Notes: a model not told the origin generated them from the sequence alone. Positions 7,356 through 13,454 are shown, numbered from the stretch's first letter. The stretch is DNA of 19,508 nt from an uncultured Thioalkalispiraceae bacterium (GCA_964420605.1 CAYQUC010000062.1:1-19508), one strand, 5' to 3'. Numbers and translations: made by a program.

Positions 7356-9212
7356 ATGATAGAAATAGTAAAAAAAGCGAATCTTAATTCAGTAATGATT
7401 TTATTATTAGTGATGGCATTTATACATCCATTGCTTTATTGGGGAGAGTTACGCGATGCATCTTCTTTACCGCGGTACGCATTATTAAGTATATTTTCCG
7501 GTGTTGGTCTGATTATTTTGACATTAACTCTATTCCGAAAAGAAAAAAATATTTACGTACATTATATATATATCCCAGTTATTATATTTTTTCTTTGGTC
7601 TCTACTGTCTATTTCATGGTCTGTTGATCCTAAGAATGGATTTATAGAAATAACCCAATTATTTGGACTGCTTTTAATTGCTTTTTTAACTTCTCAGATT
7701 ATTAGCAAAGAGCGTTTAATATTAATTGTAGTTGTTTCAATAATTAGTGCTTCAATTGTTTCTTTAATTGGAATACAACAATATTTTAACTATAACCCAT
7801 TTAATTTTGTTCAATATTCTCAGCCTGGTTCTACTTTCACTGTTACAAATTTAGTTTCTATTTATTTAGATTTAATTGTTCCTGTAGCATTCATGTTTTT
7901 TATTACGTCAAAATCAAAGTATGTTCAATGTTTTTTTGCGGTGTGCTTTAGTTTATGTTTTTCATTTTTATTACTATCCAGAACTAGAGGGTCATGGCTA
8001 GGGTTATTATTTATTTTCATATTGTTTATAATGTTGATGTATAAAAATCAATGGTTAAAAGAAGCGTTTTATTTAAATTTTAAAAATAAAAAATTATTAA
8101 CGGTGCTGTCTTTATTGTTACCAATAATTTTATTAAACATTTCAGGAGGAAGTTATAAAGGAGGTTATTCGAAGTTGTCGTATGGTGAATCAGCAGGTAT
8201 TCGATTAACTGCATATGTTAATTCGTTATCAATGATTAAAGATAAACCTCTATTAGGTACAGGTATCGGCGGATTTCGTATCGGATTTCGTCCATATATG
8301 TTCGCGAGTATTCCATTAAACCAAGCTGACGAGGATATTAATTTATTACGGCTACACAATGACCCAATGCAGTTTATTGTTGAACTTGGTATTCCTGTTG
8401 GAATATTGACATCTTTAATTGCTTTATTTATATTTTTTCTAATATGGCAGGTGATTAAAAAAGAAAGTACTGATACTGGAAAGTTAATTTATATAGGTAT
8501 TTTTTTGTCATTACTTGTTAGTGGAGCACACTCTTTAGTAGATTTTCCTTTACGTAAACCCAGTTCTGCAATTCAATTAAGTTTATGGCTTGGTGCATTT
8601 ATTGGTTTATATACACAGTATTGCAAGTCAAAGAAAATTATAGTAACTAATTTCATCTTAACTTTATTTTTGATGCTGTCAGTTAGTTATACTATAGTGG
8701 TTTTAAGTTTTTACTCACGATACATTCAAAGTAATGTGTATTTAAAACAAGCTCAAACCAATTATTTAATTAATAATTGTGAACAAGCAAAGAAAAACAT
8801 TAAAAATGGAAATGATATGTTTGGTTTAGATTATTTGTCTCAAAAAAGTCTTATTGATATGTATAGTTTTTGTGAATCAACGATAATTGAAAAGTTAGTA
8901 ATAATGACGGCTAGCATAGAGTATGATTCTACAAATACTCGAGCTCGTTTAACTCGAGGGAGGTTATATTTATCACTTGGGCAATTTAATAAAGCAAGAA
9001 TGGATTTTGAAACAATAGTAAACATTCTTCCGAATAGAGCTAGTGGTTATGTTGGATTGGGAGATATTGAGTCATTAAATAAAAAATATAAAAAGGCTAA
9101 TGAATATTACAAACAAGCACTGTTAAATGTTAAAGGCAATACTGTTAAGTCAAGTAGAGAACGTGAAGAGATTAATCTGCGTTTAGCTAGTATTAATATG
9201 TATCTACAATAG
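7356..9212 (+). CDS. Polytopic membrane protein with a Wzy_C/O-antigen-ligase (WaaL/PglL/TfpO-like) domain and a C-terminal TPR domain. Candidate pilin O-oligosaccharyltransferase or O-antigen ligase.
   Basis: Many N-terminal transmembrane segments. Signature 'PLLGTGIGGFRIGF...LLRLHNDPMQFIVELGIPVG' matches the O-antigen ligase family (R..HN..E.G). The C-terminal ~180 aa is TPR-like. Very low GC. Confidence 0.75.
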   Translation: MIEIVKKANLNSVMILLLVMAFIHPLLYWGELRDASSLPRYALLSIFSGVGLIILTLTLFRKEKNIYVHYIYIPVIIFFLWSLLSISWSVDPKNGFIEITQLFGLLLIAFLTSQIISKERLILIVVVSIISASIVSLIGIQQYFNYNPFNFVQYSQPGSTFTVTNLVSIYLDLIVPVAFMFFITSKSKYVQCFFAVCFSLCFSFLLLSRTRGSWLGLLFIFILFIMLMYKNQWLKEAFYLNFKNKKLLTVLSLLLPIILLNISGGSYKGGYSKLSYGESAGIRLTAYVNSLSMIKDKPLLGTGIGGFRIGFRPYMFASIPLNQADEDINLLRLHNDPMQFIVELGIPVGILTSLIALFIFFLIWQVIKKESTDTGKLIYIGIFLSLLVSGAHSLVDFPLRKPSSAIQLSLWLGAFIGLYTQYCKSKKIIVTNFILTLFLMLSVSYTIVVLSFYSRYIQSNVYLKQAQTNYLINNCEQAKKNIKNGNDMFGLDYLSQKSLIDMYSFCESTIIEKLVIMTASIEYDSTNTRARLTRGRLYLSLGQFNKARMDFETIVNILPNRASGYVGLGDIESLNKKYKKANEYYKQALLNVKGNTVKSSREREEINLRLASINMYLQ

Positions 9213-9249
9213 TATATTTAACGATTATGTTATTTAAATTTCAATAGTA

Positions 9250-10995
9250 ATGATGGCTACATTTAGAGGTGTGAGGTTAATCGTTTTGAATATTATTACT
9301 AACAAATATATTTCGTTTTTAAAATATAATGATTTTTTGAAAATGTTGTCACTTTTTATTGTTGGAATATTCTTGTATCAAAAAGTGTTTTTTTATGACT
9401 TTGTATCTTATGATGACGCCATCTATATAAAAGCTCTTCATCATAATATTTCAGGTGGTAATCTATTATATTGGGCTTTTACTAATATTGTTAATAATAA
9501 TTGGAGCCCCGTTACTTTATTATCATTTGCTGTTGACTATAAAATATACGGTTTAAATGCAGGTGGGTACCACGCTACATCAGTGTTTTTGCACTGTATT
9601 AATGCAATATTAGTGTTTTTGATATTAAATATTATATTTGAAGAGAAGAATAAGGCGTATTTTATATCCTTACTTTTTCTGATTCATCCACTTAATGTTG
9701 AGACTGTTACATGGATTAGTGAAAGAAAAGGGGTGTTATCGGCATTCTTTTCTTTGTGGGCACTGTATTTTTACTTAAAAATACCATATTCATATTTTAA
9801 AAAAACATTTTATATATTAGCATTAATGTCATTTATTTTGGCATTATTATCTAAGGCTGTATTCGTAACCTTACCGTTTATATTTATATTAGTTGATTGG
9901 TATATTTGTAAGTCTAAATCTATTGATTTTTATATATCTAAAAGTGTATATAAGACTTTTTTATTTTTTTTAATATCATTACTGATTGGTGTGATAACAA
10001 TACGTGTTCACTCTGCATCTGGTGCTATTGTGTCTGAACAAATTAATCCATTACAGTATAGGTTGGGTAATGTCACTAGTTCATATATAGTATATTTAAA
10101 ACAATTGTTTTATCCTTTTGATCTGATTGTGTTGTACAGTTATAAAATAATAACGGGGTTTATGATTTTTTTAAACACAGTTTTAATTACAGGTATTTTT
10201 TATTTAGTATATATAAATAGGAGAGAGAGGAAATATTTAACCTTTGGGATTATTTGGTATACGTTATTATTATTACCGGTAATTGGTATCGTACAAAGTG
10301 GTTATCATGCTCATGCTGATCGATATTCCTATATACCATTAATAGGGATTTTTATTGTGACTGTTTATCTACTTTCAGAACTCATTACTAAACTAAATAT
10401 AAGTACTGTTATTATAAAGAGTACCGGAGTAATGTTAATTTTTATGATGATGTTTATTTCTTGGGTGCAAATTTCGACGTGGAAAAACACTGAGTTTTTG
10501 TTTGAGCACACGTTAACGGTTGATCGTGATAATTATGCTGCTAATACTAATTTAGCCGTGTACTACATTCACCAAGGTGATATATCAAAAGGATTAACCT
10601 ATTATCGTAGAGCAAAAAAAGTAAAACCATATTATGTCAATATGTATGAAACGGTATCACTCGCTTTACTCAAAAAAAGTAAACCGGATTTAGCTGTAAA
10701 TATTTTATTCGATTTTATTAAAAACGATAAAATGTTTGTGCGGGCATACATCAAAATTGCTCAAATTAGAATTAATCAACAGCAATACTCTAAGTCGGTA
10801 AATATTTTACTTCAAGCGAGAGAAATAGATAGCTTAAAAAAAATTGAGTCTGAAATTAATTACTTATTGGCCTATTCTTATCTCAAACTAAATCAAAAAA
10901 AATTAGCAATAAATGTACTCGAAAACTCCGCAAAGGTAGGAGACTTTGGCGACAAAATAATTTTAATGTTAAACTATATTAATATAGCTAAATAG
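9250..10995 (+). CDS. GT-C fold membrane glycosyltransferase, PMT/TMTC (GT39-like, DUF1736-type), with C-terminal TPR repeats.
   Basis: N-terminal multi-TM region with a loop-1 acidic 'YDD' motif and a 'YHATSVFLHCINAILVF' helix, as in the protein O-mannosyltransferase/TMTC family. The C-terminal ~200 aa is TPR-like. The start codon is uncertain and no clear RBS was found. Confidence 0.7.
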   Translation: MMATFRGVRLIVLNIITNKYISFLKYNDFLKMLSLFIVGIFLYQKVFFYDFVSYDDAIYIKALHHNISGGNLLYWAFTNIVNNNWSPVTLLSFAVDYKIYGLNAGGYHATSVFLHCINAILVFLILNIIFEEKNKAYFISLLFLIHPLNVETVTWISERKGVLSAFFSLWALYFYLKIPYSYFKKTFYILALMSFILALLSKAVFVTLPFIFILVDWYICKSKSIDFYISKSVYKTFLFFLISLLIGVITIRVHSASGAIVSEQINPLQYRLGNVTSSYIVYLKQLFYPFDLIVLYSYKIITGFMIFLNTVLITGIFYLVYINRRERKYLTFGIIWYTLLLLPVIGIVQSGYHAHADRYSYIPLIGIFIVTVYLLSELITKLNISTVIIKSTGVMLIFMMMFISWVQISTWKNTEFLFEHTLTVDRDNYAANTNLAVYYIHQGDISKGLTYYRRAKKVKPYYVNMYETVSLALLKKSKPDLAVNILFDFIKNDKMFVRAYIKIAQIRINQQQYSKSVNILLQAREIDSLKKIESEINYLLAYSYLKLNQKKLAINVLENSAKVGDFGDKIILMLNYINIAK

Positions 10996-11172
10996 TACCT
11001 TTCTTGAGTAACTCTTATTTTAAAATTAACTATGATAGTACACTTATGCATTATCCTGTCTTAATTATTAACTAACGTAATGGTAGATATAAAATATTGA
11101 ATTTATAATTATATAATTTATAATATTCATATCATGATATAACGGAGTTTAAATATTTAGTTGGGAGTTGAC

Positions 11173-12775: not shown

Positions 12776-12792
12776 ATATTGTTCTGTATAAT

Positions 12793-12818
12793 AACGGTGG
12801 GTTTCCCCACCCACCGTT
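12793..12818 (+). terminator. Hairpin AACGGTGGG-(loop)-CCCACCGTT between the two pilin genes. Partial terminator or attenuator with no strong T-run.
   Basis: 9-bp perfect stem read directly, followed by ACCTTTAAAG. Confidence 0.4.
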
Positions 12819-12995
12819 ACCTTTAAAGTTACCTGAATATTTACATCAATATTACCTGTCAACTATTAAGTAACCTTAAATTATTTAGTATTCTAGTATT
12901 ACCTTCAATATCAGTTAATGGTCGTAATTGAACTATAAAAGAGCTTTTCAGCAGAATTCATTATTACTTTGTGAGACTAATTGGGTTATGTAAAA

Positions 12996-13454
12996 ATGAA
13001 TGTACGTATTAGACAATATGGGTTTACACTTATCGAGCTGATGATTGTTGTGGCAATTATCGGTATTTTAGCTGCAATAGCGATACCAGCATATAATTCT
13101 TATATTTTACAGAGTAAAGTTAGCAGTTTAATTGAAAATCATCGAACGGCATTACGCTTTATACAATATGAAGCATCTAAATTTGCTTTAAGCTCGGTAA
13201 GTTGTGGTCCGTCAGATAATATTATCGTTGAACTTAATACTGGTAACAAACAAGCCGTGGGCTCACCATTGACACCTGCTTTTGCTGATGCATTGACACC
13301 TGCGGCAGGCCAGGTTGGAATTAATGGCTTATTGAGTGGTTGCCCTGTTTCTAATACCGCAATTACTATTTCAGTAGGTTTAATTACGGGCAGTGTCGCA
13401 TTAACTGATTATCCTGGAGGAGGTTTACCCAAAGTAGTGTTCACCCCTGAATGA
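12996..13454 (+). CDS. pilA: Second type IVa pilin paralog (leader [33 protein letters not shown]), ~152 aa.
   Basis: Same conserved N-terminal alpha-helix as the first pilin. The C-terminal half diverges but also ends '...DYPGG...FTPE'. The ATG at 12996 gives a normal short leader, and the listed 12981 start would add 5 aa. Confidence 0.9.

Follow-up and report, generated by a model that had tools for sequence, protein, structure and literature searches.

Pilin glycosylation alters the surface chemistry of the pilus, its susceptibility to phages and its antigenicity, and O-oligosaccharyltransferases (O-OTases) are in addition tools for conjugate vaccines. The characterised pilin systems found in the literature contain one transferase class per locus. 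All known O-OTases contain a Wzy_C domain with an essential His, as in WaaL, PglL and TfpM (PMC9829042). TfpO and TfpM are proteins of 420-470 aa encoded by a gene immediately downstream of the cognate pilin (PMC9829042, Table 2). TfpW is an enzyme of the glycosyltransferase C (GT-C) type whose periplasmic loop 1 contains a DDX motif and whose C-terminus forms a periplasmic tetratricopeptide repeat (TPR) domain; it is encoded together with tfpX and interacts with TfpX (bioRxiv 10.1101/2020.04.19.049825). Homologues of TfpW are 30-47% identical to that of PA7, and the accessory family to which TfpX belongs (TfpX/TfpY/TfpZ/FimB) has been described as well (PMC11841053). Glycosylation of pilins by TfpO or TfpW defends against phages (PMC11841053; bioRxiv 10.1101/150227). 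This text deals with a contig from an uncultured Thioalkalispiraceae bacterium (GCA_964420605.1, CAYQUC010000062.1), in which a Wzy_C-type and a GT-C-type enzyme, each with a TPR tail, are encoded one after the other upstream of two pilin genes, together with a TfpX-type protein. In the literature searched, TfpO and TfpW are described as alternative single systems, and none of it reports a pilin locus with the two enzyme classes together.

A Putative Pilin-Modification Cassette Upstream of Two Pilin Genes

The window analysed is the entire NCBI contig of 19,508 bp. The region 7356-13454 holds five genes, namely three open reading frames (ORF1 to ORF3) and two type IVa pilin paralogues:

7356..9212, + strand: ORF1, 618 aa, putative O-oligosaccharyltransferase with a WaaL/Wzy_C-fold membrane domain, an extra transmembrane (TM) helix at about 432-451 and a TPR domain at about 475-617
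9250..10995, + strand: ORF2, 581 aa, PMT-like GT-C membrane domain and TPR domain at about 410-581; putative polyprenyl-phosphate-sugar-dependent glycosyltransferase of TfpW-like architecture
11173..11970, + strand: ORF3, 265 aa (269 aa from the TTG at 11161), pilin accessory protein of the TfpX/TfpY/TfpZ/FimB family
12317..12775, + strand: pilin 1, type IVa prepilin of 152 aa, Pfam N_methyl at E 8e-10
12996..13454, + strand: pilin 2, with an N_methyl motif; the ATG at 12996 gives a 9-residue leader (the ORF call starts at the TTG at 12981)

With a probability that we put at about even, this region is a modular pilin-modification cassette at the pilin/zapD-coaE-pilDCB locus of an AT-rich marine gammaproteobacterium related to Thiohalomonadales/Thioalkalispiraceae, in which a TfpX-type helper accompanies two independent glycosyltransferases. 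The pairing of a Wzy_C-type with a PMT-type enzyme beside pilins, already noticed in the initial annotation of this DNA, recurs in related metagenomic contigs and loci of metagenome-assembled genomes (MAGs), which were labelled L001-L173 for comparison with the window. The order Wzy_C–GT-C–FimB(–pilin) is also present in L005 and L009, with protein identities (tblastn) of 67-74%, 61-64% and 68-71%, respectively, so that the pair is kept beside pilin or pil genes in three diverged lineages.

The PilB of the window is at least 90% identical to PilB in several marine MAGs labelled as Gammaproteobacteria, Thioalkalispiraceae or Thiohalomonadales. Presence or absence of the cassette genes in relatives, which the initial annotation had pointed to, does vary: the same site holds the Wzy_C enzyme only, the GT-C enzyme only, three GT-C-type genes, or none of them. 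Relatives with a PilB about 93% identical carry varying gene combinations at this chromosomal site, which is occupied by Wzy_C-TPR and FimB in L001, L090 and L012, by FimB and two pilins in L003, by FimB alone in L004, and by GT-C-TPR, a 394-aa protein and two pilins in L008. In L007 (835-5926), a 540-aa multi-TM protein with a weak match to the AftB arabinofuranosyltransferase model and two tandem GT-C-TPR paralogues are followed by FimB. Given this variety among close relatives, the ORF1-3 block is a modular, exchangeable pilin-modification cassette.

Linkage to pilus genes recurs among the close homologues. A FimB-like gene is adjacent at the pil locus in all six distinct loci with an ORF1 homologue of at least 54% identity (window, L005, L009, L001, L090 and L012). 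Of the seven loci with an ORF2 homologue of at least 41% identity, six have pilins, FimB or pilBCD next to it (window, L005, L009, L007, L008 and L173); in the seventh, L094, the end of the contig falls inside the GT-C gene.

Two side observations concern these loci. The 394-aa protein of L008 (2181-3365), without any Pfam or NCBIfam match, occupies the FimB-like slot between the GT-C-TPR gene and the pilins. In L173 (5473-6702), a 409-aa GT-C protein lacking the TPR tail, 42% identical to the membrane domain of ORF2, is encoded directly after pilB-pilC-pilD.

The Two Transferases and the Accessory Protein

ORF1 had been assigned to the Wzy_C type by its R..HN..E.G signature, and the assignment stands: Pfam Wzy_C matches residues 198-351 with 65.3 bits (cut-off 31.7), and the signature reads L-R332-L-H334-N335-DPMQFIV-E343-L-G345. 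Apart from Wzy_C, only TPR families (residues 516-590) are matched in Pfam at E up to 0.1; there is no match to PglL_A or Wzy_C_2, which flank Wzy_C in the general O-OTases of the PglL type. R211, R283 and H334 are invariant in 42 sequences of the ORF1 family, as are E343 and G345, and H392 is nearly so. The two Arg and the His lie in or beside predicted periplasmic loops and would be equivalent in position to the residues of WaaL. The predicted fold is that of WaaL; the SEDS proteins FtsW and RodA come next among the structural matches. Both enzymes had been presented as GT-C glycosyltransferases; this is correct for ORF2 and has to be amended for ORF1, whose fold is that of WaaL and not of the PMT/ArnT-type GT-C enzymes. 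Past the WaaL-like core, ORF1 continues with a short Lys-rich loop, one TM helix and the TPR array, which is predicted to face the periplasm, like the catalytic loop.

With the Wzy_C family (PglL, PglS, TfpO, TfpM) and with WaaL, ORF1 thus shares the Wzy_C domain, the fold and the invariant Arg/Arg/His. Its length and its C-terminal periplasmic extension resemble those of PglL (550-620 aa), but the flanking Pfam domains of PglL are missing and the extension is a canonical TPR array joined through an extra TM helix. From TfpO and TfpM it differs in being longer and in its position 3.1 kb upstream of pilin 1, outside the pilin promoter.

ORF2 begins 37 bp after ORF1. The initial annotation described it as a PMT-like enzyme with C-terminal TPRs, and this description has been confirmed: the best structural match of its predicted fold is PMT-like GT-C, the loop-1 motif Y54-D55-D56 and the string YHATSVFLH (107-115) are in place, and Pfam TPR matches cover residues 417-560. 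D55 is found in all of 85 sequences and D56 in nearly all; the family also keeps H146-P147, R159-K160 and Y282-x6-P289 without exception, and its close homologues all share F290. Over 2,000 homologues at about 35% identity were found, many of them with PMT_2 and several labelled 'protein O-mannosyl-transferase' by JGI; the PMT_2 model is matched by 11 of 30 aligned family members (best E 1.7e-10). An exact-sequence look-up of ORF2 gave no match.

The closest described arrangement is pilA-tfpW-tfpX of Pseudomonas aeruginosa group IV (Pa5196, PA7), with which the window was matched by published description. Both have a GT-C enzyme with DD in loop 1 and a C-terminal TPR domain, encoded beside a three-TM TfpX/FimB-family gene and a pilin, and the YX6PF motif that precedes the TPR domain is present in ORF2. 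Unlike TfpW, which has 646 aa, ORF2 has 581 aa, and the window differs further in its extra Wzy_C enzyme and in that no D-arabinofuranose genes are visible on the contig (DprE1/DprE2-type genes for the D-arabinofuranose donor are absent from its 19.5 kb). A second likeness is to the eukaryotic O-mannosyltransferases TMTC1-4 and PMT, which use a polyprenyl-phosphate donor to add a single sugar to Ser/Thr: ORF2 has the PMT-like GT-C fold, and its order of a GT-C domain followed by TPRs is that of TMTC. It differs from them in having no Pfam match to the TMTC domain DUF1736 or to PMT, and in its bacterial, periplasmic setting. The cyanobacterial pilin glycosyltransferase Ogt was rejected as a comparator, being a cytoplasmic GT41 enzyme (an O-GlcNAc-transferase homologue). 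A recent shared origin of the TPR tails of ORF1 and ORF2 was rejected as well, as their similarity is generic only (best BLASTP E 0.024).

The third gene had been described as a two-TM accessory protein, which has to be corrected. ORF3 has three N-terminal hydrophobic segments (17-35, 53-71 and 83-101) followed by a periplasmic C-terminal domain, and it matches NCBIfam NF041437 (TfpX/TfpZ family) at E 4e-48 over profile positions 1-239 of 240. As the score of 164 bits is below the cut-off of 200, ORF3 is regarded as a divergent member of the family. Its homologues carry Pfam PF27166 (FimB), and one of them is named FimB by UniRef. Like TfpY, TfpZ and FimB (P. aeruginosa groups III and V; Dichelobacter nodosus FimB), it combines the family match, three TM segments and a periplasmic domain with a pilin-adjacent gene, which in the window lies upstream rather than downstream of the pilins. 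Given this family membership, ORF2 and ORF3 together resemble the known tfpW-tfpX pair.

A genome scan seeded with FimB, from which the best 80 loci or genomes with FimB-like genes were taken, bears on how widespread these architectures are; P. paraeruginosa was not among these 80. In Pseudomonadales MAGs (L050, L054, L060, L061, L073 and L037), pilA is followed by a protein of 640-670 aa with a long helical C-terminal region, convergent with a FimB-like gene. Pfam Wzy_C was confirmed in this protein for L050 and L061, and in L037 the match is just below the cut-off. This pilA-linked protein appears to be a widespread, uncharacterised architecture, like a long-form TfpO. The TPR tail of ORF1, present as first annotated, is not unusual among the loci compared, since helical-repeat tails also occur on these pilin-linked Wzy_C proteins. 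In L038 (7181-15925), L040 and L053 (both about 500-4900), GT-C-TPR proteins of 642-658 aa, 16-18% identical to ORF2, are encoded downstream of pilin and FimB, and genes for MurJ- or Wzx-like flippases come next; the pilin of L038 is preceded by a 580-aa sulfatase-family membrane protein that may be a phosphoform transferase.

The Pilins and Their Putative Control Elements

The two pilins are 64% identical as proteins, and their genes contain a DNA repeat (12341-12637 and 13020-13316) that is 70% identical. The Ser/Thr/Pro-rich strings quoted in the initial annotation, TPNTPAF among them, are present in the pilins, and pilin 1 has Thr/Pro-rich variable stretches. Both end in ...FTPE, and eight related aligned pilins likewise end in Glu (FTPE, AE or WE). 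C-terminal glycosylation in the manner of TfpO was therefore rejected: the acceptor pilins of TfpO and TfpM end in Ser/Thr, those of the window in Glu, so that ORF1 cannot act like these enzymes and only internal sites are left, such as the Ser within an Ala/Pro-rich stretch that PglL uses. The alpha-beta loop contains AASP in pilin 1 and ALSS in pilin 2. In a small sample, the pilins of the two loci with both enzymes have K[FW]AASPVAC or KFALSSVSC in this loop, and those of loci without the Wzy_C enzyme have AAGGxC, which is suggestive of a difference in acceptor.

Three elements were recognised around pilin 1, the first and the last of them read directly from the DNA:

11986..12020, no strand assigned: perfect 13-bp inverted repeat ACAGTAATTGTCA-n5-TGACAATTACTGT
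12170..12184, + strand: sigma54-type -24/-12 element TGGCATgattgCTGC, 147 nt before the ATG of pilin 1
12794..12817, + strand: GC-rich hairpin after pilin 1

The window, L005, L003 and L008 all have TGGCAY-n5-CTGC at 146-150 nt before the ATG of their first pilin, and no sigma54-type site precedes the second pilin in any of the three loci that have one (window, L003 and L008). The proposal of a sigma54-driven pilin pair is thus upheld for pilin 1, with its conserved site, and not for pilin 2. About 170-190 bp upstream of the sigma54-type element, a TGTCA-n5-TGACA core occurs at the equivalent position in L005, L003 and L008, and not before pilin 2; the palindrome at 11986-12020 is accordingly a candidate binding site for an enhancer-binding protein of the PilR type. 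The hairpin may be a partial terminator; a terminator-like match was obtained on the complementary strand (12811-12796). This organization suggests that pilin 1 is under PilR/RpoN-type control and that pilin 2 would be expressed by read-through past the hairpin.

Proposed Function and Alternative Explanations

Judged from sequence, both glycosyltransferases are apparently active, and the cassette would most likely serve to O-glycosylate internal Ser/Thr of the pilins in the periplasm, with two donor classes used independently. ORF1, as a WaaL/PglL-type enzyme, would transfer an undecaprenyl-diphosphate-linked oligosaccharide en bloc, and ORF2, as a PMT/ArnT/TfpW-type enzyme, would transfer a single sugar from a polyprenyl-monophosphate carrier, possibly repeatedly. 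The unrelated TPR tail on each enzyme, if periplasmic in both, presumably holds the protein substrate, and ORF3 would help in the handling or assembly of the pilin. The acceptors are likely to be the two adjacent type IVa pilins, at internal Ser/Thr, since both end in Glu. The two enzymes would act independently and additively and so diversify the surface of the pilus, by analogy with the phage protection afforded by TfpO and TfpW in Pseudomonas; independent action is preferred here, as close relatives have either enzyme alone at this site. Each of the two systems is already known separately, and their putative combination would probably decorate the pili with two kinds of sugar. If the enzymes are active, the locus would show that a bacterium can bring together en bloc and single-sugar glycosylation in a single fibre and that such functions move as exchangeable modules of the pilin locus, and it would supply new TPR-guided O-glycosyltransferases for internal pilin sites. 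The relatives, some with only one of the two enzymes, others with both or with three GT-C-type genes, form a natural series for dissecting specificity.

Several observations weigh against two pilin-directed transferases. ORF1-3 precede the pilins and do not belong to the sigma54 transcription unit, unlike the known tfpO and tfpW genes, which are downstream of pilA and co-transcribed with it. In the region YLKQLFYPFDLIVLYSY of ORF2, Y282-x6-P289-F290 is present and the terminal Pro of YX6PFX7P, the proline-rich motif in periplasmic loop 4 of TfpW, is absent; moreover, no Pfam GT-C model, including PMT_2, matches ORF2 itself at E up to 0.1, where only TPR families are significant. Within the 19.5-kb contig there are no genes for sugar-donor biosynthesis, for polyprenyl-phosphate glycosyltransferases or for flippases. 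Finally, ORF1 relatives of 36-38% identity occur in housekeeping contexts away from pilins, so the ORF1 family is not intrinsically pilin-specific. The last point is also an argument for a different explanation, in which pilin is the target of one enzyme at most: ORF1 would then be a general O-OTase or an O-antigen ligase or polymerase acting on lipopolysaccharide or envelope proteins, and ORF2 a general envelope glycosyltransferase, both placed in a hypervariable locus for surface structures. The separation from the pilin transcription unit agrees with it, as does the broad ORF2 family (about 30% identity), which has a pilin-like neighbour in only 4 of 80 metagenomic loci and forms tandem arrays in 18 of the 80. 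Since this broad family and the distant ORF1 relatives are mostly unlinked to pilins, pilin linkage is a trait of the close subfamilies and not of the superfamilies. We regard this explanation as unlikely, though it deserves to be kept in view, because FimB-like, pilin or pilBCD genes repeatedly accompany the close homologues of both enzymes, and because the TfpX-type partner mirrors the tfpW-tfpX pair.

A sequential or hybrid pathway is a further possibility. Here ORF2 would prime pilin Ser/Thr with one sugar onto which ORF1 ligates an oligosaccharide, or ORF2 would decorate the transferred glycan, as in Gtr-type or three-component O-antigen systems. WaaL naturally ligates onto a sugar acceptor. 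The short distance between ORF1 and ORF2 and the conservation of the pair in three lineages are compatible with such cooperation, and periplasmic modification of completed glycans is common among GT-C enzymes (PMC11194591, PMC11127046). The loci with the Wzy_C enzyme only (L001, L090 and L012) or the GT-C enzyme only (L008 and L007) indicate, however, that neither depends on the other, and TPR tails on both enzymes fit the recognition of a protein better than that of a glycan, which makes the sequential pathway improbable. The initial annotation had proposed a dual or hybrid system; the pairing of two enzymes is retained from it, and the occurrence of each alone at the same site disfavours an obligate hybrid and points to two independent add-on modules. 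Slightly more doubtful still is that the locus provides either a novel two-step route, with GT-C priming and WaaL-like ligation onto that sugar, or a doubly glycosylated, phage-shielding pilus in which both enzymes modify one pilin at different sites. It is most improbable that ORF1 and ORF2 are non-catalytic factors for pilus assembly or stability that act through their TPRs, with transferase domains that are mere relics. The TPR proteins PilF and PilW do act in pilus biogenesis, and weak NCBIfam type_IV_pilW matches lie over the TPR regions of both proteins; but invariant residues at the expected catalytic positions are kept in both families over 17-74% identity, and the membrane domains give high-confidence predicted models of intact enzymes. 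Independent glycosylation of the pilins by two enzymes is thus the explanation that we prefer.

Base Composition and Surroundings of the Cassette

The AT-rich block reported directly upstream of the pilins is real: GC is 0.26-0.31 over 7500-12500 and 0.32-0.42 in the flanks. By gene, GC is 0.288 in ORF1, 0.278 in ORF2 and 0.313 in ORF3, against 0.34-0.41 in the neighbouring genes, and at third codon positions (GC3) it is 0.20-0.26 against 0.25-0.33. In both measures ORF1-3 are below even the membrane proteins PilC and PilD, and the homologues of the cassette in relatives are likewise AT-richer than their own pilBCD genes. However, much of the drop sits at codon positions 1 and 2, and since GC3 differs less, part of it reflects the amino-acid composition of membrane proteins; low GC as a simple proof of foreign origin was therefore rejected. 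The suggestion of horizontal acquisition gains support from the presence/absence polymorphism and from the modest compositional shift, but no mobility genes and no convincing direct or inverted repeats were found around the low-GC block.

The remaining genes of the window are arranged as follows:

5' of and including the cassette, + strand, in window order: tRNA genes and an HNH gene, an SPFH-domain gene, a 319-aa gene, rtcB, ORF1-3, pilin 1 and pilin 2
3' of the pilin genes, - strand: zapD, coaE, pilD, pilC and pilB

The region upstream of the cassette differs from the secA-argJ-NUDIX context of the related MAGs. A stand-alone gene for the RNA ligase RtcB lies directly 5' of the cassette in the window (5968-7212), and likewise in L005 (3-200) and L007 (1-672); it is absent from the corresponding site in L003, L001 and L090. 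An uncharacterised protein of about 319 aa, without Pfam or NCBIfam match, is encoded at 4785-5744 in the window, at 9030-9980 in L003 and at 6622-7704 in L090. It is 68-69% identical in the relatives, where its gene is directly 5' of the FimB-like or Wzy_C gene, and it may be part of the pilin accessory region.

An Rfam scan of the window returned tRNAs only. The cluster within 1-3200 comprises tRNA-Asn (1449-1523), tRNA-Pro (1811-1888), tRNA-Gln (2189-2263) and tRNA-Leu (3091-3164), and a fifth tRNA (1903-1969) is matched by Rfam and not called by ARAGORN. A gene for an HNH endonuclease (2323-2892) is interspersed among them, and 5' of the cluster there is an ORF of 211 aa on the - strand (189-824), without Pfam match, whose N-terminus is phage-repressor-like by eye. 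The region 1-3200 looks like a phage-derived tRNA island.

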